A stretch of 64,000 nt of DNA from NCBI GenBank assembly GCA_964409875.1, contig CAYPEN010000001.1, forward strand, positions 1,313 through 65,312. The letters run 5' to 3'. The stretch is from an uncultured Gammaproteobacteria bacterium. Its GTDB lineage: Bacteria > Patescibacteriota > Microgenomatia > Levybacterales > GWA1-39-11. The notes under the pieces are model-generated. The model saw nothing but the letters and a program-made list of their open reading frames with translations. It ran no database searches and was not told the origin of the DNA. Positions 1 to 53,337 of this stretch are shown piece by piece (positions within the stretch are counted from its first letter, which is position 1; every line of letters begins with the position of its first letter). Both the position numbers and the translations under genes were made by a program.

Positions 1-3000
1 TTGCAGCCGGTACCAATCCGACAGCATCAGTCAGTGCAACTTCAGGTTCAAATAATGGAAACGGAATTGTTATCGCCGGTGACGGTTCAATACAGTCCTT
101 AAGGAATAACACGTTAACACTTGGAGGTAATACAACAGGCAACATCACCATCAGCCCACAAAATGGAGCTGGAACGGTCACGGTCAATGGCACACTTGCA
201 GCAAAGACGAGTGGGGGTGCAACAATTGTCGTTGCTGCAAGCAACTCCTCGGCAAAAGGTAAAGCACAGGCTGACTATGTAGCAACAGGTACAAATGATG
301 ATGTAACTATCGAGTCGGCAATAGCCGCTCTCCCTGCAACTGGGGGGTCCGTGGTGTTATTGGATGGTACATACAATATCGGCAATGCTGCAGGAGACGG
401 AATTGATATTACTAAGTCGAACGTCTCAATCATAGGGTCTGGTAAGGCTACGATTCTGAAAAGACAAGGAGATACGGCTACAAATGATGGCGTTATTGCC
501 GCCACCTCAGTTTCACGTATAGCAATTGCTGATCTTGCGATAGACGGAACCAAGGCAACCTATACGGGCACACAAAATAGAGGTATTTATTTCAGTTCGG
601 CTGTTACTAATTCCCAAATCAGAAATACATACATTCACGACAATGACGGGACCGGTATTTATGTAGATTCATCAAGTAACAATAATACATTCAAAGATAA
701 TGACCTACAGTCTAACGGCGAGTACGGCGGTATTGTAATTGTCTCTTCAAATAGCAATATTATTTCGGGAAACAACCTGCAGTCCAATACTACGTATGGT
801 ATCTGGCTAGTCGCTTCAACAAATAACACGGTTACGGGTAATAATGTACAGTCAAACACCGGAACAGGTATCGAGATGTTCAACGGCGCCAACAATAACA
901 TCGTGACAGGGAATACATTGCAATCCAATACTCAAATCGGTATCTCTATTGATACAGCCAACAACAACAGCATAACGGGGAATAAGCTTTATGACAACAC
1001 CGGTAGCGGATCCAATTCATCAATCGTTCTTGCTACTGCCGACGCAAATACTATTGCTAATAACGACATTACGGATACAGCAGGAACGGGATATGCAATA
1101 AATATCTCAAACTCAGCAAGCGACAATAACTATGTGACAGGGAACCGTTATTCGGGGACAGGTGCGGCCAATATTTCAGATTCGGGTACAGGAACAATGT
1201 TAGCTTCGCAGCTTGCAAACAGCGGTAATGACCTTATTCTAAATGCAGCCCGGTATTTGGGTATTGGAACCGCAACACCCACCTCCGTTTTGAGTGTAGT
1301 GGGGGGCACTATGGGTGGTAATGCAGCTGTAATTCTCAACCAAACTGGTTCTTCCACTAATGATATTTTTGCCGCATCTTCATCGGGTACGACCAAATTC
1401 GTCATCAAAAATGATGGGACTGCTTCAACATCAGGAAATCTAGTTATCAATTCAACAGGTTCACTTCAAACCACAAATAACCAAACACTTACCCTTGGAG
1501 GGAGTTCCACAGGTGATATCGTTCTTAAGCCACGGAATGGGAGCGGTTTTGTGGGAATTGGTAATGCAAGTCCTGCCTATCCATTGGACCTTCTCTCTAC
1601 CACCAATCCGCAAGTCCGCTTCGGATATGATACTTCAAATTACATGACGCTGCAGATAGGTTCAAGCGGAGTAACAACCTTTGATGCGGTCGGGAGCGGA
1701 GCGGCATTCAACTTCAAAGATACGGTTTCGTTGGGTGTGTCAGGAGCTTCAAATGGGATTTTGCAATTTAATAATAGTGCTGGTGGAACAGCAGCAAGTA
1801 TTACTACTAACGCTTCAGGCGACTTAATTTTGCAGTCTTCAGGAGGAATTGTGAATTTGGGAGTAGGTTCGGGAGATATTACTATTGATCCCGGCACTAA
1901 TAATATAGTAGCCAATCTTACGTCAGGTAATTTCTATGGGCAGAAAAATGGAACAAGCCTTATCTCACTTTCTACATCAGGGACTCTTCCAGTTGCCTCC
2001 TTCTCCGGGACAACTTCTTTTGCAGGATTATTGGTTGATAACAGTGGGGTAGGCAATCTCTTCACCGCCTCAACCTCGGGTCTTACGAGGTTTACAATCA
2101 CTAATAATGGGACTGCTTCTTCATCAGCAGGGTTTACTATCGACGGAAATGGGGGAAATATTCAGTCAACACGAAACCAAAGTCTGACAATTGGTGGCGG
2201 CTCGACCGGGGAATTGACTATCGGTAGGACCTCGCAAAGGGTTTTTCTTCCCGGCTTTGATTGTTCGGGTAGCGGCAACGGAGGAAAACTTACGACTACC
2301 GCAGGCGGAGTCCTTACTTGTGCTGCCGATGGCGGAAGTAGCGGAGCAGCAGGTACTTGGACCCTGGATGGAACGAACGGCATTCACACTCCTATAAATA
2401 ATACAGCTGACCTTCTCGTTGGAGGGACTTCAACGCAGTCAGCCATGTTTAGTGTTTTGGGAATTGCAGCTGGTACCAATCCATCAGCATCTGTATCGGC
2501 CATCAATGGTGCAAATGCTAATAAGGGTATCTATATGGCAGGAGACGGGAGTTTGCAGAGTGTCCGCAACAACTTCCTCACCCTTGGAGGAAATACAACA
2601 GGAGATATTTATCTCAAGCCGCTGAACGGCGCAGGAATGGTGAGAATTATCCATGGCACTACCGGAACAGGTGGACTTATGCTAGGTGATTCAGAGACCG
2701 ATGCCACACAAAAGGCAGCACGTTTGAAGTCAATTCCATATAACAGTGCTTCCTCTCTTCCAATCTCAATGCTTATTGCTATCAATTCATCGACAAATAA
2801 CGTACTTAATATTGGGGGAGGTTCAAGCTCTGAGTATGCAGTAACCGATGTATATATTAAAACAGCTACCACTCAGACCACTACAGTAGGAACGACAAGA
2901 TTTTATGTTGGAGGAGCAAGCGGTTTTGTAGGAATCGGTGATACAAATACTTCTCCTGTTGCAAGGCTTGATATTTTAGATAATGCGACCGATATCAATG

Positions 3001-6000
3001 GGGAAAAACTGGTACTCAGGAGAACCGGGGCAGGAGATGTCGGTCTGTCATTCCAGCAGAATGGTATATCAGCATTCGGAATTGTTAATAGAAGTGGTTC
3101 TGGTAACGGTCTTGCATTTGTTGATAATTATTATGAAGGAAGCAATGGAACAGAAATTGCACGGTTCTATGCTTCATCAGGTGTCGGTATTGGAACGCTT
3201 GGCAATACTCCTGTTGCAACACTTGACGTAAGAGGAGTTTTTGCCAATTCAGGTACTCAGCCCGTTGCTTCATTCTCCGGAACAACTTCATTTGCCGGGC
3301 TTATAGTGGATAATAGTGGGGTAGGAGACCTCTTTACTGCCTCAACTTCAGGGTTAACGCGGTTTGTGCTTCAGAGTAATGGGGTTGCTTCAGCCTCCGG
3401 AGGATTTACCATCAACAATGCAGGGAGTCTTCAAACAACCAAAGGTCAAACCCTGACAATCGGTGGAAATTCAACAGGTGACATCTCATTTAAACCAGGA
3501 AATTCTTCAACAAGTCTGTACCTTGCCTCAACAGGGGCTATTGGGGTAAATGGCTCATTTGGGGCACTTGGCCAATGTCTTCTCTCAAATGGGGCAGGGG
3601 CGGCTGCTTCATGGGGAGGATGCGCGGCCGGTGCTGCGGGAGGATGGTTCAACCTCATCTCGTCTCAAGGAACAATTGTCCCTGTCAATCAGACCCTTGA
3701 TCTTCTCTGGGGAGGAAACTCGACCGCTTCTGCGGGCTTTAGAATTTCTGGAGCAACGAAGAACTATGGCACTGTTGCAGCCGCTTCCGTAAGCGCTAAT
3801 ACCTCATTTGCCGGCATGGTTATTGATAACCGTGGAACCGGAGAGCTGTTGACTGCCTCCTCATCAGGTCAGACACGCTTCACTATATATAACAGCGGGA
3901 ATGTAGTTATCGGAAATGGAGGCGACTCAGGATTTAGGCTTGATGTGAAAGGCTCTGTAAGGATAGGCAATAACACGACAACTGACGATATCGTGAAAGA
4001 CAGCTCCGTTGACTTTACTCAGTCGGGATATGCAATTACCACAAATGATAGCGTTAATACTGTTTCGACTTCAGAAAATCAAATCAAGCTTGTTACCGAC
4101 CTTATCGGGGCCGGAGCGTCGCTTACAGCGCCTGCCGCTGACCAGACAACAGGCACCAATGTGACGACCGGGTCTGTAGCCTTCCAGAGACCGGATAAAA
4201 AATTCGTCGTCTTTGTCGGCGGAGCCGCAACAAGCAAAATGTATGATCCGACAACAGGTACGTGGATTGCAGGTCCAAGTACTGCCGGTGCGGTATCCAT
4301 GGGTGCCGGTGCAAGGGCATTCCAGAGACAAAACGGGTCATTCCTGGTAATTCACGGCGGAGCGGCTACTAGTACAACTGTTTATTCCTCGGGTGGTTCT
4401 GCCAATTTGGGAACTGCTATTGCAGGTCCGGCGACAACAGCAGCAGTGGGAGCAGGCTCACAGATAATAAGGCGTCCCGATGGAAAAATTCTCGTTATCC
4501 ATGGAAATACCAGTACAACCTCTAGCGTTCATGACCCGGTTACCGCTACGGGTACGACTTCTTTAATTGGCACCTTTATTACAGGACCTGCAACAACGGG
4601 CAATGTGGTTGCTGGCTCATTTGTTTTCCAGCGGCCTGACGGAAAATGGATTTTGGGGCTTGGAGGAAGTACAACAACCAACCTCTATGACCCCTCTTCC
4701 TCAGGGGTCGGTGGTGGAGGCGCATTTTCAGCAGGGCCATCTCTTTCTGCAGGTGCTCCTGCAGCAGGAACACATGTTATTCAGCTTCCCGATGGTCGGT
4801 TCATGGTTCTTGTGGGTGGAAGCACGGCGACCCAGATATATGACTGGAAGTCTAATTCTTTCTCTGCCGGTAGTACGATGACTGTGACAATTGGTGCCGG
4901 CGCTCATTCTTTCCAGAGGTCTGACGGTAAGTGGGTTGTCGTAGCAGGAGGAAATTCGACAAGCCTTATGCTCTATGACCCAACGAGCGGAGCGGATGGA
5001 ACTTTCAGCAACTTAGCAAGCGGTTTGTCGGCAGCGGCAGGTGCGGGTGCTCTTACCTTCCAAAGACCGGACGGAAAATACATTGTAGTTCACGGAAATA
5101 CTGTCCAAACAACAACTCTCTATGATGCGGGGTGGAATACCACAGGAACTTGGACATCGGAGGACATTCTCAACACAAAGATTTCTACCTATTCGGCGAT
5201 GATTTGGTCGGCAAATCCACAGTCTGCGAATAACAATGCCCGGCTCGATTCTGAAACTATCAATATAGCCGTCAAGACAGGAGACACGCTTACTTCTCTT
5301 GGTAACAATCCATACAGGACTCTTCAGGATAGTGGTGACCTTATTAAGGCGTATGGAAACTCACAATACGCAAAGATTCAGGTTACGTTCACTGTCCCAA
5401 TTCGCTCATATCCCGGAGGAGCAACGGCCTATTTAGCTCAATCAAACATTTGGGACGGCGAGGGAGGTACTTTCCTTCGAAGAAGCTTTATTCAACCAAC
5501 AGTATTTAGTATGCGGATTCAAAATCCTCTTGTGAGTTATGGTGATCCGTCAGGTCAAGGAGATCCTGCTTTTGGAAGAAATTTTGCAACAGCCTCAGCT
5601 CAACTTGAGGGGGTGGGAACGGATAATTCAAACCGCTTGACACTTTTGACCCTCAGAAATCAACCAACCTCGACTGCCTCAGCAGGCATCATTATCGCCT
5701 CTGCATCGGCAAATCTTGGCGGAAATGCGGGTGCCGGTGCTCACACCATAGAGCGCAATAACGGGCAATTCCTTACGATACTTGGCGGCGGCACGACTAC
5801 AACACGCACATATGACTCTGATACGAATACTTGGTCGGCGGGACCCGATTTGCCGAATGCAGCAGGTGCCGGGGCCCATTCCTTCCTCCTTCCTGATGGA
5901 AGATTCTTCGTTGTATTGGGGAACACAACCAATAAGACTGCTATCTTTGACCCCCAGACAAGCCTGTTCTTAGCAGGACCAAACCTCTTTGGAAACGTAG

Positions 6001-8606
6001 GGACTGGTGCTAATTCATTCCAGAGACCCGATGGGTACTTCGTCATTCTCAATGGAGGAGCCACTCCGGCCACTAATATTTTAGATCCGTTCACGATGAC
6101 TGTGACCCAGGGGCCATTTACGGCTGGTGCAACCCCAAATGTAGGCGCAGGCGCCTTGAATATAAAGCGGTCTGATGGAAGAGTTACGATAATTTTAGGA
6201 AATGGTAATGCTATAGCTACAGGAACGAACGTGTACGATCCGGCTTCAAATTCGTTTGCAGCGGGACCGGCGCTTGTTGGAGGGACGGTTAATACCGGAG
6301 GCAGTGCAATACAAATTAATACGGGAAGAATTCTTCTCTTTAAGTCCACAGCTACCTCAAACTGGTATGATCCCGTCCTAAATACATTCGCCGCAGGTCC
6401 GACACCGACTGCTAATGGCGCCGGCGCATTTGTGATTCCTCGTTCTGACGGAAAGATATTCAAGGCGAACGGAGGAAACGCGGCTACAACAAATATTATC
6501 GACCCTCAGTCAGGCGTCGCAGTAACGGCCACCAGTGCTCCAACGCTTCCATGCAACATCAATACGGGTGCCCATACATTCCAGCGTCCAACGGGGGAGT
6601 ACGTTGTCATCTGTGGAGGCAGTACTGCAAATACTCTTGTTATCGATGCGGGTTGGAATTTGGGCGGAACTTATACTACGGAGCAAATCCAGGTCCCCAA
6701 CCTCAGCAGTACGAGCTCATTATTCTGGAAGAATGTAGGACAAGGGTCAATTACTGTAAAGTACAGAACTGCCGCTTCACAGCAGGCATTAGGAGTATCT
6801 TCATGGAAGGATTTACCTAAAAGCGGGTCTTATATTTCGCCAGCTGCTGGGGATACATGGATTCAAGCGAGGTTTGATTTGCAGGGAGTATTGCAGGATT
6901 TGCCGGGTGCAAAAACAAGAGTATGGAACGGGTCTGATGCGGGTGGTGGAATGGTCTATTACCGCTCAGTTCAGGCGCCAATACTTGAGTATTGGAAACT
7001 CATCAATATACAAGACCCGACGCTTTTGACTCTTTCAAGCGGTGGAGATAATGTGTTCCGTTTCTCCTCGGACGGTCAAGCATATACCTCTGACAATGGA
7101 GCATGGAATTCAGGAGGCGCCGACCTTGCAGAGCGCTATCAATCCCAAGATAGCCTTGTTGCAGGTGAAGTTGTATCTCTTGACAGGTTCCATCCGCAGA
7201 ACACCCGTCGCGCAACTACAGCTTATGACCAGAATGCCATGGGGGTTGTTTCGACTCAGCCCGGATTTGTTGCAGGTGCTTACACCGAGAATTCGTACCC
7301 AATTGCGCTTGTCGGACGTGTGCCTGTCAAGGTAAGCAATGAAAATGGAGAAATTCACGCGGGTGACTACCTCACTTCAGCCTCAATTCCAGGATATGCG
7401 ATGAAAGCAACCGTTGCAGGTCGGGTCATAGGTCAGGCGATGGAATCCTTCGACTCCGCTCAGGACCATGGGACTTCCAACCTGCAGGATTGTCCTAAAT
7501 TCGGTGCCGGAAATCTGACGGCAACACGATGCGGAACCATAACAGTATTTGTGAACCTGACCTCCTACAATGGCGAATCCGTAGACGTTGCCATGAAAGA
7601 GAATGGGTACGCCCTCAAAGAGGAGGAGTTACCCGCAATTTCCGGGATGGACTTTTCTGAAGGAACGGATGCAAGGCGCCAACAAGAAGTGCTCGGGTTC
7701 CTAAAGACCCAAAAAGATAACGGGCAAAGTATCTATACGGATAGAATTGCTGCAACGCAGGAGGTTATAAGTCCGCAGATTGTGACCGACCTTTTGGTCG
7801 CAAAGAAGATAAAGGCCGAGTCTATCGAAGGGCTTGAAATCATCACTAACTCAATTGAGAGGCTAACAGACCAGGTTGGAACAGGTAGTGCTATCCAGAA
7901 TTTCTCAGATAGGCTTACGATGTTAAGCCTTACTCAGAAAGACTTTGAAACTCAGGTTTCATCATTATCTGCAAAACTTGACAAGATAAGCTCACTTAAC
8001 CTCCTAAGCTTTATTGCCCAGGGCTCGACAAGCGGAGAGCTAACCATGGTCAACAATTTTGCTTCCTACGGCACGACAACGCTCTCAGAGGCCTCTGTAA
8101 TGAACACAATAACAATTGGTACGGGTTCTACCCTCAACCTTTCAAATAACTCACTGTACACGCTTGGAGACGACCTTTCTATACAGCCATTCAGACAGGG
8201 CGGCGTCAACTTCCTCGGTGGACTCATCAGCTTCGACACAGATGGGAAAGCGGTATTTAAAGAGGACGTTACCTTTGAAAAGAATGTGGGCGTTGCTGGT
8301 GTTCTTTCGGCCAAAACCGTTGCCTCAACTGAGCTTCAACTCGGCCAGGGAACAACGACCGTTATCTCAGATACGGAAGTAACGGCTACCGCCGCTGCAG
8401 GCCTTGTTACTTTGAAGAAGAACACAGACCACGTCAAGGTCAACAATCCGCTCGTACGTGACAATTCGTTCATATTCATAACTCCAAAGACCAAGACTGT
8501 CCTGCAACTGTTCTTGCTCGACCAAGCTGAGGGTACATCATTCACCGTCGGAGTAGACGGCAAATCCACAGAAGACATCAAGTTCAATTACCTCATCGTC
8601 AACTGA
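1..8606 (+). CDS. giant secreted/cell-surface repeat protein, 5' end outside window (>2860 aa): right-handed parallel beta-helix repeats, ~130-aa tandem modules, ~20 Kelch-like propeller blades, tail-fibre-like C-terminal region with coiled coil
   Basis: Frame 3 is open from nt 3 to the stop at 8604-8606. The ORF track starts at 351 only because it needs a start codon. Residues encoded at 3-350 (LRNNTLTLGGNTTGNITISPQNGAG) repeat the internal module seen later (VRNNFLTLGGNTTGDIYLKPLNGAG), so the gene starts upstream. N-terminal part: NosD/pectate-lyase-like repeats (GNNLQSNTTYGIWL, GNNVQSNTGTGIEM, GNTLQSNTQIGISI). nt about 4040-6540: about 20 tandem ~48-aa units with FQRPDGK...GG...YDP, a Kelch-type blade signature. 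C-terminal part: SGGADLAERY block, then heptad-like coiled coil and a final beta-rich domain. Confidence 0.8.
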   Translation, partial: AAGTNPTASVSATSGSNNGNGIVIAGDGSIQSLRNNTLTLGGNTTGNITISPQNGAGTVTVNGTLAAKTSGGATIVVAASNSSAKGKAQADYVATGTNDDVTIESAIAALPATGGSVVLLDGTYNIGNAAGDGIDITKSNVSIIGSGKATILKRQGDTATNDGVIAATSVSRIAIADLAIDGTKATYTGTQNRGIYFSSAVTNSQIRNTYIHDNDGTGIYVDSSSNNNTFKDNDLQSNGEYGGIVIVSSNSNIISGNNLQSNTTYGIWLVASTNNTVTGNNVQSNTGTGIEMFNGANNNIVTGNTLQSNTQIGISIDTANNNSITGNKLYDNTGSGSNSSIVLATADANTIANNDITDTAGTGYAINISNSASDNNYVTGNRYSGTGAANISDSGTGTMLASQLANSGNDLILNAARYLGIGTATPTSVLSVVGGTMGGNAAVILNQTGSSTNDIFAASSSGTTKFVIKNDGTASTSGNLVINSTGSLQTTNNQTLTLGGSSTGDIVLKPRNGSGFVGIGNASPAYPLDLLSTTNPQVRFGYDTSNYMTLQIGSSGVTTFDAVGSGAAFNFKDTVSLGVSGASNGILQFNNSAGGTAASITTNASGDLILQSSGGIVNLGVGSGDITIDPGTNNIVANLTSGNFYGQKNGTSLISLSTSGTLPVASFSGTTSFAGLLVDNSGVGNLFTASTSGLTRFTITNNGTASSSAGFTIDGNGGNIQSTRNQSLTIGGGSTGELTIGRTSQRVFLPGFDCSGSGNGGKLTTTAGGVLTCAADGGSSGAAGTWTLDGTNGIHTPINNTADLLVGGTSTQSAMFSVLGIAAGTNPSASVSAINGANANKGIYMAGDGSLQSVRNNFLTLGGNTTGDIYLKPLNGAGMVRIIHGTTGTGGLMLGDSETDATQKAARLKSIPYNSASSLPISMLIAINSSTNNVLNIGGGSSSEYAVTDVYIKTATTQTTTVGTTRFYVGGASGFVGIGDTNTSPVARLDILDNATDINGEKLVLRRTGAGDVGLSFQQNGISAFGIVNRSGSGNGLAFVDNYYEGSNGTEIARFYASSGVGIGTLGNTPVATLDVRGVFANSGTQPVASFSGTTSFAGLIVDNSGVGDLFTASTSGLTRFVLQSNGVASASGGFTINNAGSLQTTKGQTLTIGGNSTGDISFKPGNSSTSLYLASTGAIGVNGSFGALGQCLLSNGAGAAASWGGCAAGAAGGWFNLISSQGTIVPVNQTLDLLWGGNSTASAGFRISGATKNYGTVAAASVSANTSFAGMVIDNRGTGELLTASSSGQTRFTIYNSGNVVIGNGGDSGFRLDVKGSVRIGNNTTTDDIVKDSSVDFTQSGYAITTNDSVNTVSTSENQIKLVTDLIGAGASLTAPAADQTTGTNVTTGSVAFQRPDKKFVVFVGGAATSKMYDPTTGTWIAGPSTAGAVSMGAGARAFQRQNGSFLVIHGGAATSTTVYSSGGSANLGTAIAGPATTAAVGAGSQIIRRPDGKILVIHGNTSTTSSVHDPVTATGTTSLIGTFITGPATTGNVVAGSFVFQRPDGKWILGLGGSTTTNLYDPSSSGVGGGGAFSAGPSLSAGAPAAGTHVIQLPDGRFMVLVGGSTATQIYDWKSNSFSAGSTMTVTIGAGAHSFQRSDGKWVVVAGGNSTSLMLYDPTSGADGTFSNLASGLSAAAGAGALTFQRPDGKYIVVHGNTVQTTTLYDAGWNTTGTWTSEDILNTKISTYSAMIWSANPQSANNNARLDSETINIAVKTGDTLTSLGNNPYRTLQDSGDLIKAYGNSQYAKIQVTFTVPIRSYPGGATAYLAQSNIWDGEGGTFLRRSFIQPTVFSMRIQNPLVSYGDPSGQGDPAFGRNFATASAQLEGVGTDNSNRLTLLTLRNQPTSTASAGIIIASASANLGGNAGAGAHTIERNNGQFLTILGGGTTTTRTYDSDTNTWSAGPDLPNAAGAGAHSFLLPDGRFFVVLGNTTNKTAIFDPQTSLFLAGPNLFGNVGTGANSFQRPDGYFVILNGGATPATNILDPFTMTVTQGPFTAGATPNVGAGALNIKRSDGRVTIILGNGNAIATGTNVYDPASNSFAAGPALVGGTVNTGGSAIQINTGRILLFKSTATSNWYDPVLNTFAAGPTPTANGAGAFVIPRSDGKIFKANGGNAATTNIIDPQSGVAVTATSAPTLPCNINTGAHTFQRPTGEYVVICGGSTANTLVIDAGWNLGGTYTTEQIQVPNLSSTSSLFWKNVGQGSITVKYRTAASQQALGVSSWKDLPKSGSYISPAAGDTWIQARFDLQGVLQDLPGAKTRVWNGSDAGGGMVYYRSVQAPILEYWKLINIQDPTLLTLSSGGDNVFRFSSDGQAYTSDNGAWNSGGADLAERYQSQDSLVAGEVVSLDRFHPQNTRRATTAYDQNAMGVVSTQPGFVAGAYTENSYPIALVGRVPVKVSNENGEIHAGDYLTSASIPGYAMKATVAGRVIGQAMESFDSAQDHGTSNLQDCPKFGAGNLTATRCGTITVFVNLTSYNGESVDVAMKENGYALKEEELPAISGMDFSEGTDARRQQEVLGFLKTQKDNGQSIYTDRIAATQEVISPQIVTDLLVAKKIKAESIEGLEIITNSIERLTDQVGTGSAIQNFSDRLTMLSLTQKDFETQVSSLSAKLDKISSLNLLSFIAQGSTSGELTMVNNFASYGTTTLSEASVMNTITIGTGSTLNLSNNSLYTLGDDLSIQPFRQGGVNFLGGLISFDTDGKAVFKEDVTFEKNVGVAGVLSAKTVASTELQLGQGTTTVISDTEVTATAAAGLVTLKKNTDHVKVNNPLVRDNSFIFITPKTKTVLQLFLLDQAEGTSFTVGVDGKSTEDIKFNYLIVN

Positions 8607-8629
8607 CGATGAGATTCAATTTTTAAGCT

Positions 8630-9070
8630 CAAATTTTTAATTTTTAAACAAATAAAAATGACAAAAGTAGAAAAAAGATACGACTTAGAAGAAAGAACGG
8701 CAGTTTTTGCAGAAAATGTTATAGCGCTTTGTAAAAGAGTGAAAAAAGACGTTGTTTTACCGCCTCTTATAAGTCAATTAGTACGTTCTGCAACAAGCAT
8801 TGGAGCAAATTACTGTGAGGCAAATGGAGCATCTTCTAAGAAAGATTTCACAAATAAAATCCATATCTGCAAAAAAGAAGCAAAAGAAACAATGTATTGG
8901 CTGAGGATTTTGGGTTCTAGCACTGAAGACCAAAAAGAAGAATGTAGGATTTTATGGAAAGAATCACATGAACTAGCACTCATCTTTGGAAAAATAGCAA
9001 CCAATTCAAAGCAAACAGGTTTAGAGCTTAGAAATTGAAATTTGATTAAAAATTTTAAATTAAAAATTTG
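8630..9070. repeat. AT-rich cassette bounded by imperfect terminal inverted repeats, carrying the four-helix-bundle gene
   Basis: Left end caaatttttaatttttaaa (8630-8648). Its reverse complement tttaaaaattaaaaatttg matches the right end ttttaaattaaaaatttg (9053-9070) with a 2-nt indel. Related cargo-less AT-rich copies lie at 50449-50565 and 52335-52440. Confidence 0.3.
8658..9038 (+). CDS. four-helix-bundle protein (23S rRNA intervening-sequence protein family)
   Basis: 126 aa. Family hallmarks are FAENVIALCKRV, QLVRSATSIGANYCEANGASSKKDFTNKIHICKKEAKETMYWLRIL and a C-terminal helix. Typical size for the TIGR02436-like family. Confidence 0.8.
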   Translation: MTKVEKRYDLEERTAVFAENVIALCKRVKKDVVLPPLISQLVRSATSIGANYCEANGASSKKDFTNKIHICKKEAKETMYWLRILGSSTEDQKEECRILWKESHELALIFGKIATNSKQTGLELRN

Positions 9071-9765
9071 AATTTGAACAAGATTATGAACAAATTAATC
9101 AATATGAAACAAGTTATTTTTAGCTATTTTTCCTCGCCATAGGCGAGAGGAAGGAGGTGAAGATATGTGGCACAAAAAGCATTAAAGAAAGTACGAAAAC
9201 AAGTGAAGCTTTTCGTGTATTTCTTGTCAGCATCATACGCCAATTAAATTAGTAGCTAGAAGCTAGAAGTTAGTAGTTAGCAGAAAGAAGAGTATATAAA
9301 GCCTCAAATTTCTTCAACAACTACAAGAAAACTTCAGTTACTGCCAGTTTTCTTTTTGTTAAAAACTAATAACTAGCGACTAATAACTAATAACTATTGT
9401 TATGAAAGACTGCCCAGAAATCGAAGAGCTTTTGCTCAGAGTCATCGGAGACGATGTCGTGGGTTTTTTTGAGAGAAAAGCCTCAACATCAGAACAGGAA
9501 GTGAGGGTATTCACGCCTGTATACAGCAGTACAAAGTCGCAAGGCTTGGTCAATTAACGCAGAGCAAAAGCAAACCATAACTCCGGTTAGCCCCAGCCTC
9601 GCGTAGACAACGAGTCTAGGCGGGCCGGTTTGCTTTTGGGGAAGCGTTTTCGATCCGATGATAGAGTAAAGTGAGTTTTTTAAGCTTCGATTTGGAGGGT
9701 AGGTATTCCTGTAGAAAGAGCGAATTGACTTCCATTTCACTATCTACTATATTCTGGCTATTGCC

Positions 9766-21310: not shown

Positions 21311-21412
21311 AGCTTGAAGTCTTCGTTTCACTCGACTATAAGCAAGCTTGAAGTCTTCGTTTCACTCGACTATAAGCAAGCTTGAAGTCTTCGTTTCACT
21401 CGACTATAAGCT
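21311..21412. repeat. 34-nt perfect tandem repeat x3 (agcttgaagtcttcgtttcactcgactataagca)
   Basis: Three head-to-tail copies read directly from the sequence, immediately downstream of rpmG. Confidence 0.85.
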
Positions 21413-25948: not shown

Positions 25949-28900
25949 TCAATTTATCGGAATATAATTGTCCAAATCCTCTAAAGATACTTTCCCATCG
26001 TTATTAAAGTCAGCAGTCTTACCATTCCCGCTCAACTTTTCAGAACGCCATATCAAAAGGTCTGAATTGTTGACCTTATTATCACAGTTAGCATCTCCTT
26101 GAGCTTTCAGTGGGCACGATTGGGCGGTTTGAGCACCCTGTACACTGCTATATGCCGTGTTTTGTTTTTTCGCACAAACAACGCATCTGTCATCAAATAT
26201 CTTACATGCGGTACCTTTGTCCGGACAACTTCTGAATTCAGAAGAAGCTACACCTGATTCTACATCTATTCTTCTTTTCTCCATTTTGTCTCCGTTGCAT
26301 GTCCAGTAGTCATATTTCACGCCTGCAAAAGCTGCCGATACAAAAGTTTTTGTGGCATCATACACAAGTGCTACATCAGCAGGACTTATGATATATGTAG
26401 CAGTTCCAAAAATATGTTCAGAAACTTGTTGAGCAATTATTTTGTTAACTCCTTTTGATGCTAAACGTTCTTCTAGCTCATAACCCACCAACTGGGTATA
26501 CTGACCGTGGGAATAGCTAATTATGTCTTGTCTTGATGCTTCTTCAAAATCCCTATTAACAATTAGTTCGGCATAGCTTACACCAGTTTTATCTTTGATA
26601 TATTGGTATGCCGTATCAATGATTAAGTTTTTCAAACTGAATGGCATAGGGATATTCGTTCCATCACCGCAATAGAGATGTTCAATGGTCGTGTTATCAA
26701 CTACAATAGGATCTGCACATTTAACCTTTTGATCTATCTCAGTACACACTTTGTTTTCTTTCCCGCAGTCTTCTTCTTTTATGAATGGACCGGACAATAT
26801 ATTGTTTCTGCATGCGGCTGAACCCTTAGGATACCATCCGTCCTTATCGGCTATCATATTAACATAGTTCTTTCCATTTTCGCCCTGATTAATTCCGCTT
26901 GATGGGTCATCTGCGCGATTCGTTGGGGGATGGACAGTAACGTTTTCAAGAGGCCGGTCATTACATATTGCGACAAGACCCACTTGGGTACATACCTTGC
27001 CTTCTGCAGCACAATCTTTTAAAAATTTATTAAAGGTCCATTCTGTTTTTGGATTACCCGACGAATCTTTTTCACCTGTTTCAATAATTCCAAGGTTATA
27101 TATTTTGTTGCTATCATTTCCTGTCCCGCAATGATTTGTAGCATTTTCCCTTTCATCAATGTTTTTCTTATCATTCGTACTATTGTCAAGGCAAGTATAT
27201 GATTCGAAATTTCCTGCGCCGACCACCTTACACTCTTGCCCTTTTGCTTTACAGTCAATGGCATTAGGATCCAGTCTTGGTGGGTTGAGGAAATTAAATT
27301 TTTGGGTTGGGTCGTATTTAGCATTCCCAGAAGAGAGATTAAAAATAACATTATCAACGCAGGTCCAACCTTCGGATTTGAAGTAAATATATTGTTTTTC
27401 CGAGGGACCTGAAGCACCGGGAATTATGGGTTTTGGAACACAACACAACTGTGACGTTGTTGCGCAGCTAGTGGTTCCGGTGGTATAGACTTCCTCCGTA
27501 TCACTGCAACTTTGACTCAAGCCGTTAATACATCTTCCACCTTTTGACGAGCAGTCGATAGGAGCAGCTGCCTTGCAACATGCCACATCAAATCCTGAAG
27601 AATCAGAGCAATTTGTCCCTACCGTATTTTGCTGTGTTCCGGTGGTGCATGCATTAGCTAAGGTAGTAAGGCATTCATATCCGGTCCCGTATTTTTGGGC
27701 GCAAGTCGTCGAAGGGTTGGTTTGTGAAGTGGTAGATGCATTTGTCGCAGTAACTTGAGTATTACCTGCTTTACAGCACATCATTTGAAAACCTCCTGAA
27801 TTATCACAGTCGGTTCCGGTCGGGTCCTTTTGAATCCCTGCCTTGCATTCATCGGTTGATGCTATCACACATTGGTATCCACTACCGTATTTTTGAGCGC
27901 AGGTTGATGTTGGACTAGATTGGGAGGTCGTTGAAGTGTTCGAAGAAGAATTTGAAGGAGCTACTGTTGGTGCGGCTGCTTTACAGCATGCCATATCAAA
28001 TCCAGCTGTATCCGAGCAATCTGTTCCCACAGTATTTTGTTGTATACCAGATTGGCATTCAGTTGATGAAGTCGTAAGACATTGGTATCCAGCACCGTAT
28101 TTTTGGTCACAAGAGAGTAATGAGGTTGTCGGTGTTGGGGTTGGTTGGGAATAGGGTGTTGGTGTGGGTGCGGCAGCTTTGCAGCATGCTACATCAAATC
28201 CTGCTGTATCCGAGCAATTTGTCCCTACTGTGTTTTGTCGTGTGCCGGACTGGCATTCGGTAGCGGAAGTTGTCAGACATTGATATCCATATCCATATTT
28301 CTGGTCACAGGAGAGTAATGTATTTGCCGGAGTTGGAGTGGATTGATAATAAGGGGTTGGTGTCGGGGTCGCAGCCTTGCAACACGCGACCTGAAACCCT
28401 GAAGAATCAGAGCAATCTGTACCTACCGTGCTTTGTTTTATTCCCGACTGGCATTCGGTAGCGGAAGTTGTAAGACATTGGTATCCTGCACCGTATTTTT
28501 GGTCACAGGATGAAGTGACAGGCGGCGCACAGGATTCACCGGTACTGATAGGTCCAAAATATCCGTTGGGGTCAAGCGTACACCCCTGTGCATTACAGGC
28601 TTCTACATCATAGAAAATACTTAAATTAGGTGCAAAACCTGAAATCGAGAAATTGGGTTGTGAGGAGGAAATCTGTTGCTGCCCGTTGGTATAACTTCCC
28701 CAGCCGTAAATTAAATGATAAGAGGTAGCATTTGGAACGGGAGCTGCAGAGAAGGAAATTGAAATTTGATTATTAGAACAAGTTCTGTTGGCACCCATAA
28801 CTCTTGGTCCTTGTGGAGGTCCTGCAACAACTTTGCAGCACGCATATGCACCTCCTGTATTGCATGTTGTTCCTATGGCAGACTGTTGTAGGTTGGGTGG

Positions 28901-29362
28901 TGCGCAGGTAGATGAGAAAGCGTCAACACATTGGTACCCTGCACCGTATTTTTGGTCACACGTTTGAGAGGACATTTGGGGAGTTGGGGTGGGTGCATCA
29001 GGAGCAAAACAACACATTGATTCTTGTCCAATCCATTGAGTGCATGCTGCATCCCCGTCCGGAGATGAGTAATGGGTTGAACCTGCAGGACATTGCGAAA
29101 AGTAGGAGAGAGGAACACAACTATTTGTGCCTCCCGTCGGATAATTGGGACAGCCGCTTTCTGCCGCATGCTGGCGGATATCAACCTGTTGCTTGAGTAC
29201 AAAAACCGTAACCGGAATAGAAAGCGCTGCTATAGCCACCAGAACCAATATGGGGATGAAGCCTTTTGAATTAAAATTAAATAATTTCGCTTGTGATATA
29301 TTTCTCACAAAAAATGATAGCCCGGTTATCAATATAGTAGCAGTGTTTAGTGTGCTTGACAA
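25949..29362 (-). CDS. large secreted protein with seven or more tandem 6-Cys ~40-aa repeats and a C-terminal dockerin-like module
   Basis: 1137 aa. Signal anchor. Repeats CDQKYGAGYQCLTTSATECQSG(I/T)(K/Q)QNTVGT(D/N)CSD(S/T)(S/A)GF(Q/D)VACCKAA, separated by AAPTPTPY linkers. C-terminus KAQGDANCDNKVNNSDLLIWRSEK...ADFNNDGKVSLEDLDNY, the same module as the neighbouring gene. A 2-nt gap to that gene. Confidence 0.65.
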   Translation of the reverse strand: MSSTLNTATILITGLSFFVRNISQAKLFNFNSKGFIPILVLVAIAALSIPVTVFVLKQQVDIRQHAAESGCPNYPTGGTNSCVPLSYFSQCPAGSTHYSSPDGDAACTQWIGQESMCCFAPDAPTPTPQMSSQTCDQKYGAGYQCVDAFSSTCAPPNLQQSAIGTTCNTGGAYACCKVVAGPPQGPRVMGANRTCSNNQISISFSAAPVPNATSYHLIYGWGSYTNGQQQISSSQPNFSISGFAPNLSIFYDVEACNAQGCTLDPNGYFGPISTGESCAPPVTSSCDQKYGAGYQCLTTSATECQSGIKQSTVGTDCSDSSGFQVACCKAATPTPTPYYQSTPTPANTLLSCDQKYGYGYQCLTTSATECQSGTRQNTVGTNCSDTAGFDVACCKAAAPTPTPYSQPTPTPTTSLLSCDQKYGAGYQCLTTSSTECQSGIQQNTVGTDCSDTAGFDMACCKAAAPTVAPSNSSSNTSTTSQSSPTSTCAQKYGSGYQCVIASTDECKAGIQKDPTGTDCDNSGGFQMMCCKAGNTQVTATNASTTSQTNPSTTCAQKYGTGYECLTTLANACTTGTQQNTVGTNCSDSSGFDVACCKAAAPIDCSSKGGRCINGLSQSCSDTEEVYTTGTTSCATTSQLCCVPKPIIPGASGPSEKQYIYFKSEGWTCVDNVIFNLSSGNAKYDPTQKFNFLNPPRLDPNAIDCKAKGQECKVVGAGNFESYTCLDNSTNDKKNIDERENATNHCGTGNDSNKIYNLGIIETGEKDSSGNPKTEWTFNKFLKDCAAEGKVCTQVGLVAICNDRPLENVTVHPPTNRADDPSSGINQGENGKNYVNMIADKDGWYPKGSAACRNNILSGPFIKEEDCGKENKVCTEIDQKVKCADPIVVDNTTIEHLYCGDGTNIPMPFSLKNLIIDTAYQYIKDKTGVSYAELIVNRDFEEASRQDIISYSHGQYTQLVGYELEERLASKGVNKIIAQQVSEHIFGTATYIISPADVALVYDATKTFVSAAFAGVKYDYWTCNGDKMEKRRIDVESGVASSEFRSCPDKGTACKIFDDRCVVCAKKQNTAYSSVQGAQTAQSCPLKAQGDANCDNKVNNSDLLIWRSEKLSGNGKTADFNNDGKVSLEDLDNYIPIN

Positions 29363-43183: not shown

Positions 43184-43282
43184 CATTCCATATTTTCAAG
43201 CTTACTAGATTAACAAAGCAAGGCAGAAATCCTCAGTTTCTACATCTTTCAAATAATTAAAATTCTGACTTACTTTGTCATT

Positions 43283-43335
43283 CACGAAGCAAGCTCCGCT
43301 TACTTTGTCATTCACGAAGCAAGCTCCGCTTACTT
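43283..43335. repeat. two tandem copies of the 25-nt repeat tcacgaagcaagctccgcttactttgt
   Basis: Read directly from the sequence. Confidence 0.6.
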
Positions 43336-43405
43336 TGTTGTTTGATAATCTATTCACAAAGCAAGACTGAACACCTTCTTTAAATTTACCACCTTGTATC
43401 AACTG

Positions 43406-50448: not shown

Positions 50449-50565
50449 AATATTTAAAATTTTTAATTTTTAATTCTTAATTTATAATGAATGTTTCAAT
50501 TCTTTAATTTTAAAATTTAATCATTTGAATTTGATTTTAAATTTAAAATTTGAATTTAAAAATTC
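50449..50565. repeat. AT-rich element related to both flanks of the four-helix-bundle cassette, with no cargo
   Basis: aaaatttttaatttttaa matches the left flank 8631-8648. catttgaatttgattttaaatttaaaatttgaatttaaaaatt matches the right flank 9041-9080. They are in the same order but only about 40 nt apart. Confidence 0.35.
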
Positions 50566-50575
50566 TATTCTTGGT

Positions 50576-50626
50576 AAAGAACAAGCTCTGCTTATTCTTG
50601 ACTAAGAACAAGCTCTGCTTATTCTT
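50576..50626. repeat. tandem duplication of a hairpin-forming unit aagaacaagctctgcttattcttg in the rplK-rplA intergenic region
   Basis: Two adjacent copies. Each can fold as AAGAACAAGC-TCT-GCTTATTCTT with one mismatch. Confidence 0.6.
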
Positions 50627-51044
50627 GTACCTTTATACCCATCGAGCGGGCGGTCCCCTTTACGATTCTCGATGCCATTTCATCGTCTTTTGTATTCAAA
50701 TCGTCCATTTTCTTTCTTGCAACATTCAGAATTTGTTCCTTTGTGAGAGTTGCTGCAACCTCCCGGCCTGGTTTTTGTGAACCTTTCTCAATTTTCAGCT
50801 CCATTTTGATAAGTTCTGACATCGGCGGTTTTTTGACGATGAATGAAAATGTTCTATCTTCATATACCGAAATAACAACAGGGAGTAGAATCCCTTTTTG
50901 ATCTGAGGTTTTGTCATTGAAAGCCTTCACGAATTCCATGATTGGAAGTCCGTGGGGACCAAGAGCGGTACCAACAGGTGGTGCGGGAGTAGCCTCGCCA
51001 CCCTTGATAGCCAATTTTATGTATGTTTTTACCTTTTTTGCCAT
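50619..51044 (-). CDS. rplK: 50S ribosomal protein L11
   Basis: MAKKVKTYIKLAIKGGEATPAPPVGTALGPHGL is the L11 N-domain with the PPVGPALG signature. Confidence 0.85.
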   Translation of the reverse strand: MAKKVKTYIKLAIKGGEATPAPPVGTALGPHGLPIMEFVKAFNDKTSDQKGILLPVVISVYEDRTFSFIVKKPPMSELIKMELKIEKGSQKPGREVAATLTKEQILNVARKKMDDLNTKDDEMASRIVKGTARSMGIKVQE

Positions 51045-51165
51045 ATGTAGCTTATGTAATAAGCGAAATAAAGACTGGCTTCCTTAAAGTTTTGTTTGCG
51101 AAGCAAACTAAACTGAATCTTAATAAGGTGCCTGTGCTTATAAAGTCCTTTTAAAGTTTCAGTGA

Positions 51166-52059
51166 TTATATCTTCGAAACCTGAAGGAAGTCAAGCTCAA
51201 CGGGTGTTTCCCGTCCAAAAATTGAGACAAGTACTTTGACTTTCCCTTTTGCCTCATCAATTGACTCGACAGTTCCCAAAAAGTCTGAGAATGGTCCGTC
51301 TGTGATTTTGACTGCTTCTCCTTGAGTGAATTGCGCTTTGTAAACCGGTTCTTTTTGGCCTACGAATGCGACAATTGCCTGGACTTCATCATCTCTAATA
51401 GGAGTTGGTTTGTTCTGTGCACCTACAAATGAAGTAACACCTGGAGTGGTTCTCACCAAGACCCACGCTTCATCTGACAAATCCATGTTGACCAAAATGT
51501 ATCCGGGGAAGATTTTCTCCTTGATTGTTTCTTTTTTACCTCCACGGACTCGGATAGTGTCTCTCGTTGGAACAAGCGCGTCAAAAATTCTCTCTTCAAA
51601 TCCCATCGCCTGGACTCTTTGCATCAAGGTCTTTGCAACCTTGTTCTCGTGCCCGGAGTAGGTGTGGACGATATACCATTTTCCTCTATATTCTTTTTTG
51701 GGCGTAACGGGTGCTGGTGCGGGAGTTGCCTCTTCTTTGGCCGGCTCTTCCGCAGCTGCTTCCTCTATCATGTCCGTTGCATCTTCGGAAGTTTCCTCTG
51801 CACTTTCTTCGTTTGGGGCGGGGTCGACTACTTCGCTTTCTTCAATAGGCGCCTCAGGCGAATCCTGAATTTCATCAGCTACCGTTTCTTCAGCTTGATT
51901 TTCCTGAGTATCATCAGCCGGTACAGCTGATGCCAGTCCATCTTGCGATTCCGTGTCATCAGCTGGAACAGCTGATGCCATCATGTCATCCAGTGACATT
52001 TCGTCTGTATTATTTTGGTCTAATGTTTCCTCTTGTTTTAATTCGTCTTGTGTGTCCAT
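51166..52059 (-). CDS. nusG: transcription antiterminator NusG with about 120-aa acidic repeat-containing N-terminal extension
   Basis: NGN domain KWYIVHTYSGHENKV. KOW domain GEAVKITDGPFSDFLGTVESID. N-extension has a duplicated ASAVPADDT(E/Q) unit. Confidence 0.85.
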   Translation of the reverse strand: MDTQDELKQEETLDQNNTDEMSLDDMMASAVPADDTESQDGLASAVPADDTQENQAEETVADEIQDSPEAPIEESEVVDPAPNEESAEETSEDATDMIEEAAAEEPAKEEATPAPAPVTPKKEYRGKWYIVHTYSGHENKVAKTLMQRVQAMGFEERIFDALVPTRDTIRVRGGKKETIKEKIFPGYILVNMDLSDEAWVLVRTTPGVTSFVGAQNKPTPIRDDEVQAIVAFVGQKEPVYKAQFTQGEAVKITDGPFSDFLGTVESIDEAKGKVKVLVSIFGRETPVELDFLQVSKI

Positions 52060-52097
52060 AGATTAGTTGTTAGCTATTATCTATTAGCTATTAAATA

Positions 52098-52271
52098 TTA
52101 GCTAATGAGTAATTTTAGGAGTTGGGTGAAGAGCATATCCAAGCCCCCCAAGTAGAGCCCGACACCAACTGAAATTGCAATTACGATAATTGTCAATCGA
52201 ATTGTTTCCGGTCGGGTAGGCCAAGTAACTTTTGCCAACTCAGTCCTTACCTCCTTAATAAAGGTGAACAT
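52098..52271 (-). CDS. secE: preprotein translocase subunit SecE
   Basis: 57 aa, below the ORF-track cutoff. MFTFIKEVRTELAKVTWPTRPETIRLTIIVIAISVGVGLYLGGLDMLFTQLLKLLIS has the typical SecE amphipathic start and single TM. It is directly upstream of nusG, as in most bacteria. Confidence 0.7.
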   Translation of the reverse strand: MFTFIKEVRTELAKVTWPTRPETIRLTIIVIAISVGVGLYLGGLDMLFTQLLKLLIS

Positions 52272-52334: not shown

Positions 52335-52440
52335 TTAGACTTTACATATAGTAATTTTCAATTTTTAATTTTAAATTTTTAAATAAAACATTTTAATATC
52401 ATTGAAAATTATAAATTTAGAATTTAAAATTAGTTGATAT
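52335..52440. repeat. AT-rich element, third copy, with no cargo
   Basis: ttcaatttttaattttaaatttttaaataaaa resembles ttcaatttttaagctcaaatttttaatttttaaacaaataaaa at 8616-8657. aaatttagaatttaaaatt resembles the right-flank motif. It sits in the secE/galU divergent region. Confidence 0.35.
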
Positions 52441-53337
52441 ATGGCAAAGATTAGAAAAGCTGTAATCCCTGCCGCCGGTTTTGGAACCCGGTTCCTCCCC
52501 CAAACAAAAGCGATGCCTAAAGAAATGCTTCCTATTGTCGATAAGCCGATTGTCCAATATATTGTCGAAGAGCTTGTTGATGCCGGAATTGAGGACATCA
52601 TCATCGTTACGGGTTCCCACAAGAGGACAATTGAAGACCATTTCGACAGGCCTTCGATGGAGTTGGTTGAGAACTTACGGATGGGTGGGGAGAAAAAAAT
52701 GAAATTTTTGGAAGAGGCAGAACGCATCGCGTCGATGGCCAACTTTATTTATGTAAGGCAAAAAGGTCCGTATGGGAATGGAACGCCACTTATGAATGTA
52801 AAATCAATCGTTGGCAACGAACCATTTATCTATACGTGGAGTGATGATTTCATCAAGGCAGAGCCCAAATCCCGCTTCCAACAGATGATTGAGGTATACG
52901 AGAAATATAATTGTTCGGTGCTTGCATCTGTTAAGGCGAAAAGCGATGAGGATTATGACCGTTATGGATTTGCAGGAGGAGAACAAATAGAGGATGGTCT
53001 TATTGATGCTAAAACCATTATTGAAAAGCCAGGAAAGCAAAATGCTCCCTCAGACTTGGCCACGGTAAGCGGTTTCTTGTTAACTCCTGACATATTTGGC
53101 TACTTGGAGCAAGCGCTTAACAATCTTCGTGAAGGTGATGAGTTGTATTACAACGATGCACTAAAACTTATGTTGGGCGATGGGAAGCGGGTTTTGGCGT
53201 ATGAAATAAAAGATGGAAAATACTATGATACGGGTAACAAAATAGAATACATGAAGACAATTGTAGAATTTGCGCTTGCTCATCCGGGGATTAATGGGGA
53301 ATTCAGACAGTTTCTCAAAAGTCTCTCTCTAGACTAA
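52441..53337 (+). CDS. galU: UTP--glucose-1-phosphate uridylyltransferase
   Basis: MAKIRKAVIPAAGFGTRFLPQTKAMPKEMLPIVDKP is the canonical GalU N-terminus. Confidence 0.85.
   Translation: MAKIRKAVIPAAGFGTRFLPQTKAMPKEMLPIVDKPIVQYIVEELVDAGIEDIIIVTGSHKRTIEDHFDRPSMELVENLRMGGEKKMKFLEEAERIASMANFIYVRQKGPYGNGTPLMNVKSIVGNEPFIYTWSDDFIKAEPKSRFQQMIEVYEKYNCSVLASVKAKSDEDYDRYGFAGGEQIEDGLIDAKTIIEKPGKQNAPSDLATVSGFLLTPDIFGYLEQALNNLREGDELYYNDALKLMLGDGKRVLAYEIKDGKYYDTGNKIEYMKTIVEFALAHPGINGEFRQFLKSLSLD

Follow-up and report, generated by a model that had tools for sequence, protein, structure and literature searches.

What kind of unit does a gene form that belongs to the 23S rRNA intervening-sequence (IVS) family, lies among protein-coding genes and is bracketed by AT-rich inverted repeats? 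This question is raised by a gene for a four-helix-bundle (4HB) protein near the left end of the DNA stretch analysed here (64,000 nt, positions 1,313 to 65,312 of contig CAYPEN010000001.1; hereafter the window). A preliminary description of the window had proposed a mobile unit resembling a MITE (miniature inverted-repeat transposable element) or a module processed by RNase III. In this study, we believe that 8615-9078 is a resident copy of a discrete palindromic IVS-type cassette, in which the 4HB gene occupies the loop and arrays of heptamers form arms of approximately 40-45 nt, and we give this reading a probability of about 0.7.

The family assignment rests on two profile models: the 4HB protein matched PF05635 with E = 2e-16 and 60.5 bits (cut-off 33.8) and TIGR02436 with 76.5 bits (cut-off 24), which is above the curated threshold. 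The AlphaFold model, computed from a 52-homologue alignment, consists of four helices (pLDDT 89), and its best Foldseek matches were 2RLD (TM 0.74/0.85), 2GSC (TM 0.76/0.84) and the Avd protein 4DWL (TM 0.65-0.74). As modelled, the protein is probably Avd-like, pentameric, basic and nucleic-acid-binding. The NCBIfam Avd model did not match it, and the PADLOC defence models gave no hit. A scan of species-representative genomes, among which the source genome, itself from the Patescibacteria, is not included, gave 417 relatives; the best 80 loci were used, all of them of the candidate phyla radiation (CPR) type, and the closest 4HB homologues came from metagenome-assembled genomes of Microgenomates-type and other CPR bacteria. 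Looking up exact sequences returned nothing for the 4HB protein, for GalU or for a 51-aa open reading frame (ORF), so that there were no close relatives at the 4HB site or the galU site, and the look-up of a beta-lactamase returned the same genome alone. The 4HB gene lies directly downstream of the gene of a 2751-aa beta-helix/Kelch protein (351-8606), and this is likewise the case in the orthologous loci. Its ATG is not preceded by a Shine-Dalgarno motif; such a motif was found in 1 of 83 4HB genes and in 14% of other genes, a weak difference given that the motif is rare in these genomes and the gene calls are crude.

The repeats are where the preliminary description had placed them, with caaatttttaatttttaaa at 8630-8648, ttttaaattaaaaatttg at 9053-9070 and the IVS-family gene between the two. 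The repeat finder reported inverted repeats at 8615-8653/9040-9078 (39 nt, 74% complementary), 8618-8641/9045-9068 (24 nt, 88%) and 8615-8633/9021-9039 (19 nt, 89%), the last of which reaches into the 3' end of the ORF. When 8590-9100 was folded as RNA, the minimum free energy structure contained a 16-bp stem (8615-8630/9023-9039) that encloses the whole ORF (z = -3.3). Tandem Repeats Finder (TRF) detected a period of 7 nt in the left arm (8632-8647) and in the right arm (9031-9078), and such arrays are present at all arms in the window. The preliminary description had noted neither this periodicity nor the family-wide arrangement given below. The GC content is 30% in the cassette (approximately 465 nt) and 42% in the window. 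At the orthologous loci L002 and L005 (loci of other genomes are cited by L numbers), the left arm is nearly the same, and the right arm is identical at 48 of 52 positions to L002 and at 48 of 53 to L001. The arms flanking the 4HB gene of the window contain no consensus promoter. The 2751-aa gene has its stop codon within a terminator-like hairpin (8592-8613; 9 bp, of which 5 are G-C pairs). Behind this hairpin, which is kept in L005, the left arm starts with T-rich sequence.

Table 1. Cassette, related elements and rplK-rplA spacers
Feature	Position	Strand	Description
Left arm	8615-8653	+	AT-rich, period-7 AATTTTT units, ends 4 nt upstream of the ATG; from inverted repeats, TRF and arm profile
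4HB gene (PF05635 / TIGR02436)	8658-9038	+	381 bp, 126 aa; final 18 nt within right arm
Right arm	9021-9078	+	Approximate reverse complement of left arm; period-7 GAAATTT / ATTAAAA units
Second hairpin	9246-9396	+	Period-7 arms TTAGTAG/CTAGAAG ... CTAATAA, between two small conserved ORFs
ORF-less copy, rplK-rplA spacer	50449-50565		Left-type then right-type arm, ~115 nt, degenerate
Heptamer array ATTAGCT x6	52062-52104		Occupies the secE-nusG spacer; without inverted partner (TRF)
ORF-less copy, secE/galU divergent region	52335-52440		Abuts the galU-like start codon at 52441
rplK-rplA spacer, window			170 nt; includes AT-rich element
rplK-rplA spacer, L175			14 nt
rplK-rplA spacer, L176			11 nt; GGAG Shine-Dalgarno motif
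rplK-rplA spacer, L179			~200 nt; other content

The arms recur without a gene at two further places, in a cluster whose genes were confirmed as rplA, rplK, nusG, secE and a gene for a GalU-like NTP transferase. An nhmmer profile was made from 166 arms in the flanks of 83 4HB homologues, all from other genomes, and in the 64-kb window it matched three places only, namely 8594-8665(+)/9020-9080(-), 50456-50581 and 52346-52437. In the rplK-rplA spacer, the matches were 50456-50522(+) and 50503-50581(-) with E = 6e-8, and TRF found period 7 at 50458-50488 and 50534-50561. In the secE/galU region, they were 52346-52386 (+, weak, E = 0.12) and 52372-52437 (-, E = 4e-4); this copy has the right-arm inner motif tcattgaaaatt, an inverted repeat (52366-52397/52401-52432) and period 7. 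Upstream of this copy stands the promoter-like sequence TTGACA-17-TAGACT, and the right arm of the copy contains TTGAAA-17-TAAAAT (52402-52430, just before galU). With up to three mismatches allowed, 0.34 matches of the left 19-mer and 0.22 of the right 19-mer would be expected in the window; 7 and 8 were observed, and all except one of these fall at the three places. Runs of at least 12 nt made of A and T only cluster in 4 of 41 intergenic regions (both spacers flanking the 4HB gene, rplK-rplA and secE-galU), whereas only five of the other spacers hold such a run, each a single short one (12-16 nt). Among 80 rplK-centred loci (440 kb), which had not been selected for 4HB genes, the profile matched 9, seven of them as +/- pairs. 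Because a profile drawn from other genomes picks out these three places alone, neither chance nor generic promoter sequence accounts for the arm motifs. The two gene-less copies are probably derivatives of the cassette that have kept the arms and the inner motifs and lack the ORF.

The cassette family in other genomes

In CPR genomes, nearly every gene in the flank table is preceded by (AATTTTN)3-5 and then AAT[C/G]AATTT, and is followed by AAATTCA[T/A]TGAAAATT and then (NAAAATT)3-5. At the variable base N, the two arms of one unit correspond to each other (C-G, A-T, G-C). The inverted repeat between the flanks exceeded the 95th percentile of shuffled sequences in 88% of the 83 CPR units; its best form had a median length of 42 nt with 81.5% Watson-Crick pairs and median positions of -48..-6 from the ATG and +13..+54 past the stop codon. 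Arms of the same unit paired with a score of 41.8 compared with 34.5 for arms of different units (p = 5e-8), and arm autocorrelation reached 0.57 (lag 7) and 0.49 (lag 14) compared with 0.27 in the controls.

When + and - arm matches were paired over 1.08 Mb, two size classes were obtained and nothing intermediate. The full class comprised 76 units of 458-573 nt, of which 71 enclose an ORF of 113-143 aa, while the greedy ORF picker listed none for the other five. The ORF-less class comprised 26 units of 71-192 nt, mostly of 113-149 nt. Between genomes, the similarity of units ends at about -41..-51 and +50..+69. Some pairs are 77-89% identical and have no detectable homologous flanks within 2.5 kb (L015/L016, L047/L084, L047/L072, L055/L065 and L027/L054), and in L015/L016 the identity is 89% across 484 nt. 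These results show that the element is a discrete unit of two sizes only that stops sharply at the outer arm edges; the idea that gene and repeats form one unit with gene-less versions holds, and the unit is present in unrelated contexts.

What the ORF-less copies retain of the full ones is the left flank as far as the place of the ATG and the right flank beginning at the stop codon. For example, L054 has three copies of approximately 115-125 nt, 77-80% alike, which reach from stop codon to start codon in the atpF/atpH/atpA spacers; it is the only genome in which ORF-less copies resemble each other above background. ORF-less copies in other genomes fold into long hairpins (z = -3.3 to -5.9). 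Most of them (21/26) lie within -33..+38 nt of the neighbouring genes, and 19 of the 23 with both neighbours known stand between co-directional genes. The upstream gene runs in the direction of the full unit in 76 of 82 cases and the downstream gene in 68 of 79 (co-directional baseline for adjacent genes 76%, random 50%), and the median gaps of full units to their neighbours are 59.5 and 66 nt, which means that the arms fill the spacers. The upstream gene encodes more than 1000 aa in 9 of 83 units and is an ordinary gene in most. As for rRNA, Rfam gave three tRNAs only in the window, and conserved rRNA motifs were absent from the first 84 loci, which are the 4HB-centred ones.

The arrangement extends to cyanobacterial plasmids, where 4HB genes sit in the operon spacers cmr2/cmr3, cas6/cas4 (twice) and nrdB/nrdA; Nostoc and Picosynechococcus are among the bearers of such natural cassettes. 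Inverted arrays of other heptamers (GGGAAAA, AGGAGAT, TAGGGAG x8, TCAGGAG, GGCAGAG) flank 8 of 10 cyanobacterial 4HB genes; one of the remaining two has direct heptamer arrays on both sides and the other has none. Of the 8 cases with inverted repeats, 7 have the purine-rich arm upstream of the ORF and one is neutral, and this dependence on orientation favours a role at the transcript level. Arm pairing, the 7-nt periodicity and the 4HB gene are conserved across lineages, and the arm sequence is not. Three of these loci (L166, L167 and L172) place the cassette inside cas operons, in the order cmr2, 4HB, cmr3 or, in two genera, cas6, 4HB, cas4. Large-scale association screens list "23S rRNA IVP" among CRISPR-associated domains (PMC10910872), and the habit of inserting into cas operons may explain this association.

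Three contigs (L175, L176 and L179) encode an L11 protein identical to that of the window and share 80-95% nucleotide identity across the region. The rplK-rplA element (50456-50565) is missing from all three, and their spacers are listed in Table 1. The preliminary description had spoken of filled and empty sites within one window, and this has to be corrected: the gene-less copies are ORF-less elements, and the true empty sites are in L175 and L176. Among 66 more distant relatives, the rplK-rplA spacer measures approximately 0-150 nt except in L114 (433 nt), and an arm match was found in L111 only. The L114 spacer holds a complete 4HB cassette of the TAGATCA arm type (TIGR02436 E = 4e-32). 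The Nostoc plasmids L165 and L171 have a common gene block with 89-99.7% nucleotide identity. A 419-nt cassette with TCAGGAG arms lies between genes 2 and 3 of L171, where L165 has "gtt" alone; a 503-nt cassette with GGGAAAA arms lies between genes 3 and 4 of L165, where stop and start codons of L171 overlap (TAATG). There is a possible 3-nt ATG duplication at one of the two Nostoc sites and none at the other. Since the element is present and absent at the same junction in relatives, it is or was mobile.

The copy around the 4HB gene of the window has a different history. It is conserved after the giant gene in L001, L002-L004 and L005 (75-77% protein identity). Between the orthologues, synonymous differences are saturated (pS = 0.67-0.94), nonsynonymous differences are few (pN approximately 0.14) and dN/dS is below 0.1, and the arms are approximately 88-92% identical (e.g. 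48/52, 53/57). Because dN/dS is low and the arms were kept while synonymous sites became saturated, ORF and arms are under purifying selection. This cassette is old and constrained and is no recent insertion.

Possible mechanism and rival explanations

We speculated that the cassette would be co-transcribed with the transcription unit of its host and that the arms would pair in the RNA as a long A/U-rich stem, the type of substrate that RNase III cuts mid-stem. With such a stem and its cleavage, the element could reside within operons and rRNA. This step is drawn by analogy and is tentative, at slightly less than even odds. The 4HB protein would be the sole product of the element and would probably act on the repeat arms. 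A published set of 22 rRNA insertions of CPR bacteria carries PF05635 ORFs (PMC11270868), and therefore the elements appear to colonise both rRNA and mRNA spacers.

Several results weigh against this reading. On the sense strand, G:U mismatches of the arms are not in excess over C:A mismatches (105 vs 91), so that they do not point to selection at the RNA level. In L015-L017, a consensus promoter (TTGACA-17-TATCAT) has its -10 box inside the left arm, most of which would thus be missing from the cassette's own transcript; outward sigma-70-like hexamers occur in about half of the arms, and the element may therefore have a regulatory role at the DNA level. The ORF-less copies of the window fold like shuffled sequence (z = -0.1 to -1.3) and are 67% alike against a background similarity of 65%. 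No transposase, recombinase or reverse transcriptase (RT) was found in or next to the cassette among the window genes scanned. Near-identical copies within one genome were not seen in these partial genomes, the best being the 77-80% of L054, and hence there is no sign of recent bursts. Finally, a consistent target-site duplication was not found: the ends of L015/L016 have none, and the Nostoc sites are mixed.

The promoter-like sites were counted over the 83 units. Outward hexamers are present in 45 of 83 right arms and cluster at +50..+68, and inward sites are present in 33 of 83 units against 21.7 expected. By their consensus sequence, the cassettes of L015-L017 appear to carry their own promoter, and promoter activity of the arms is possibly a side function at most. 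In L015-L017, which belong to one CPR subgroup, the conserved unit is also approximately 30 nt longer on the left (TTGTAGGTTATAAGCGGTTGACAAC), at about -80 to -50 from the ATG.

The first rival holds that the cassette is a domesticated cis-regulatory module, in which the arrays are operators or RNA sites for the 4HB protein, or else serve as outward promoters or as RNA-stability hairpins; on this view, the ORF-less copies would not be selfish but would belong to a regulon that the 4HB protein controls in highly expressed operons. This accounts for arms that stay approximately 90% conserved despite saturated synonymous sites, for ORF-less copies placed exactly between ATP-synthase or ribosomal-protein cistrons and abutting start codons, for the outward hexamers in the right arms and at 52402-52430, and for a fold that matches the nucleic-acid-binding Avd pentamer. 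However, relatives with identical L11 lack the copies and have spacers of 11-14 nt, in L176 with GGAG; the ORF-less copies of the window are degenerate, occupancy of the spacer is sporadic (1/66), and no consensus promoter lies in the arms around the 4HB gene of the window. We consider a regulatory module unlikely.

The second rival is a true MITE, that is, a DNA-level element with terminal inverted repeats whose arms would be arrays bound by a transposase from elsewhere in the genome, so that the 4HB gene is a passenger and RNA pairing is irrelevant. Tandem sub-repeats at both ends are typical of transposase-binding ends, and the co-variation of arms within a unit, the lack of G:U strand asymmetry, the sharp ends, the unrelated contexts and the insertion polymorphism all agree with it. 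Nevertheless, the sole cargo between the arms is the 4HB ORF (76 cargo-size pairs, no other size class), and no target-site duplication was found. Moreover, the arms differ by lineage (AATTTTC, TCAGGAG, GGGAAAA, TAGGGAG, TAGATCA) while the 4HB gene stays, and the constant partner of the arms is therefore the 4HB protein. The strong orientation bias relative to host transcription, including the upstream purine-rich arm in cyanobacteria (7/8), is a further point against this rival. We regard a true MITE as quite unlikely. Of the earlier suggestion of a mobile MITE-like unit, the insertion polymorphism and the form stand; as there is no transposase and no clear target-site duplication, "MITE-like" describes the form and not a demonstrated mechanism.

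That the arms are ordinary AT-rich promoter or UP-element sequence, with matches due to chance at 75% AT, is very improbable: their low complexity, some sigma-70-like hexamers and the shuffle-like folds of the window copies fit it, but the 19-mer excess (7 and 8 matches against 0.34 and 0.22), the clustering of A/T-only runs (4 of 41 intergenic regions), the profile matches at only these places in 64 kb and at 9 of 80 rplK loci, and the relatives with identical L11 that lack the rplK-rplA copy contradict it, and the unit proposed in the preliminary description withstood this challenge. Least credible is the reading that the gene is the Avd accessory of a diversity-generating retroelement (DGR) by which the 2751-aa surface protein encoded upstream is diversified, which is suggested by the published homology of PF05635 proteins to Avd (PMC10053308), the Foldseek match to 4DWL and the position right after the giant beta-helix/Kelch gene, also in orthologous loci, and is opposed by the unmatched Avd model, by the only 9 of 83 cassettes that follow a gene of more than 1000 aa, and by the absence of an RT domain from 18 scanned window proteins (the giant protein, the products of ten genes within approximately 17 kb downstream, out to about 26 kb, and those of four rplK-cluster genes among them) and from the genes called beside the orthologues. 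The DGR reading was rejected on the missing Avd match and the missing RT domain in the scanned genes, template and variable repeats not having been specifically searched.

Other repeats and small genes in the window

The hairpin at 9246-9396 folds as RNA with -37.6 kcal/mol (z = -3.6), has period 7 at 9249-9280 and 9360-9396 (TRF), and is probably an ORF-less element of a sister type. It lies in a 727-nt stretch past the cassette that had seemed non-coding and has two small ORFs conserved in L001 (529-645, 811-966). The first, of 26 aa, runs from a GTG at 9167 to 9247 (region 9132-9247), encodes MAQKALKKVRKQVKLFVYFLSASYAN, has a strong GGAGG Shine-Dalgarno motif and is preceded by a GC-rich hairpin, cctcgccataggcgagagg. 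The second, of 51 aa (9402-9557), has no Pfam match.

In the secE-nusG-rplK-rplA operon, the small elements and the spacers that they occupy vary from one close relative to another. The secE-nusG spacer, filled by a heptamer array in the window, measures 3 nt in the relative L177. The nusG-rplK spacer (51045-51143) holds a non-coding element of approximately 100 nt, ctttataagcac...gtttgcttcgcaaac..., which is missing in L175, L177 and L179 (28-nt spacer) and has an 82%-identical copy in the rplK-rplA spacer of L179 (about 745-885); it seems to be another small mobile element of intergenic DNA, unrelated to the cassette. In L176, the nusG-rplK spacer (about 750-835), read by eye, suggests inverted heptamer arms of another type (TAGCGTT... 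/ ...CTAAACC). Directly after the rplK stop codon (50566-50627), a 27-nt unit, caagaataagcagagcttgttcttNgt, is repeated 2.3 times, and it is repeated three times in L179 (about 672-760). Each unit forms a hairpin, with the 3' end of rplK itself as the left half, and the unit is missing in L175 and L176; the array is a palindromised, tandemly duplicated gene end.

Further repeats were noted elsewhere. Perfect (100% identical) tandem repeats stand in long intergenic regions, a 34-nt unit x3.0 at 21311-21411 and a 30-nt unit x2.3 at 43269-43338, and a 198-nt unit x2.7 (78% identity, 27965-28507) lies in the gene of a 1137-aa protein on the minus strand (25949-29362). Two proteins of the cluster are longer than usual: ribosomal protein L1 (49561-50448), with 295 aa and periodic repeats of 9-12 nt in the 5' coding region, and NusG (51166-52059), with 297 aa and an acidic N-terminal extension of approximately 125 residues.

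Comparison with known systems

The 23S rRNA IVS and its S23p/IVP (intervening-sequence protein) ORF have been unexplained since the early 1990s. An old idea is that the ORF encodes a mobility factor (Ralph and McClelland 1993, quoted in PMC4990558). The gene-in-palindrome unit described here is common outside rRNA, in CPR bacteria and in cyanobacteria. Because it offers many natural filled and empty sites, including some in genetically tractable cyanobacteria, the old question is now testable. For annotation, it matters that operons (cas, atp, nrd and those of ribosomal proteins) are interrupted by the cassettes, from which false guilt-by-association signals can arise, and the repeats of the cassettes may break metagenome assemblies. 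One may go further and conjecture, doubtful as this still is, that PF05635 genes mark a hitherto unrecognised, phylum-spanning class of mobile cassettes with inverted heptanucleotide arrays as ends, whose 4HB protein binds and perhaps copies or extends the arrays and which insert precisely at cistron junctions and in loops of structured RNA. If this were true, ORF-less derivatives would account for the ORF-less rRNA IVS hairpins, the cyanobacterial heptanucleotide repeats and the cas-associated "23S rRNA IVP".

In Leptospira, the stem of the 23S IVS is cut mid-stem by RNase III, and IVS hairpins without an ORF occur in other bacteria. The best parallel to the cassette is the IVS of Coxiella, which measures 428 nt, has a 28-bp terminal stem cut mid-stem by RNase III and an ORF in its loop, and has a GC content of approximately 36% compared with 42.5% in the host (PMC4990558). 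The helix-45 IVS of Coxiella burnetii with its S23p ORF (428-444 nt) and the window cassette are alike in the PF05635 gene, the size, the ORF-enclosing stem and a GC content below that of the host. They differ in that the cassette lies outside rRNA, in spacers of protein genes, flanked by the 2751-aa gene and small ORFs, in that its arms are 7-nt arrays, and in that its ORF-less copies are dispersed in operon spacers. Excision by RNase III is a feature of the IVS, and for the cassette it would follow by analogy.

Among intergenic palindromes, the Correia elements of Neisseria (NEMIS) and the enterobacterial ERIC sequences are co-transcribed and MITE-like, and RNase III cuts Correia hairpins. 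Like the ORF-less copies, they are imperfect palindromes of approximately 100-150 nt in operon spacers with strain presence/absence, and they may bear outward promoter-like hexamers; unlike the cassette, they have no ORF-bearing full-length form, and Correia elements have a TA target duplication, 26-bp ends and no heptamer periodicity. In the REPtron, the gene of a REP-associated tyrosine transposase (RAYT), which is an HUH/Y1 nuclease related to IS200/IS605 TnpA, is bracketed by inverted repetitive extragenic palindromes (REPs). Here too, a small gene stands between inverted palindromic repeats and gene-less copies are dispersed intergenically, but the protein of the cassette is a four-helix bundle in which no catalytic motif is recognised, and REPs are short and GC-rich.

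The short tandemly repeated repetitive (STRR) sequences of cyanobacteria, which are heptanucleotide tandem repeats, are said to have been described by Mazel and colleagues in 1990, and STRR inserts in RNase P RNA were reportedly described by Vioque in 1997. They share with the cassette 7-nt tandem units, which stand in non-coding DNA as well as in structured-RNA helices, and such arrays flank the 4HB genes of cyanobacterial plasmids; the sequences of the repeat units differ. With Avd of DGRs, the 4HB protein shares the fold and, according to the model, probably the pentameric, basic and nucleic-acid-binding character, whereas no RT was found in the scanned genes and the Avd model was not matched. 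With MITEs, the cassette shares terminal inverted repeats, a small ORF-less form (26 pairs, 71-192 nt) and insertion polymorphism; on the other hand, the full-length parent encodes the 4HB protein only, no transposase domain being found in it, and many near-identical copies per genome were not seen in these partial genomes.

In the open-access literature, we found no description of paired inverted heptamer arrays around PF05635 genes or of ORF-less derivatives, and this absence is no proof. Taken together, the cassette is not a DGR; it is MITE-like and REPtron-like yet is without a transposase-type parent gene, and although it fails the rRNA location, its architecture is that of an IVS.

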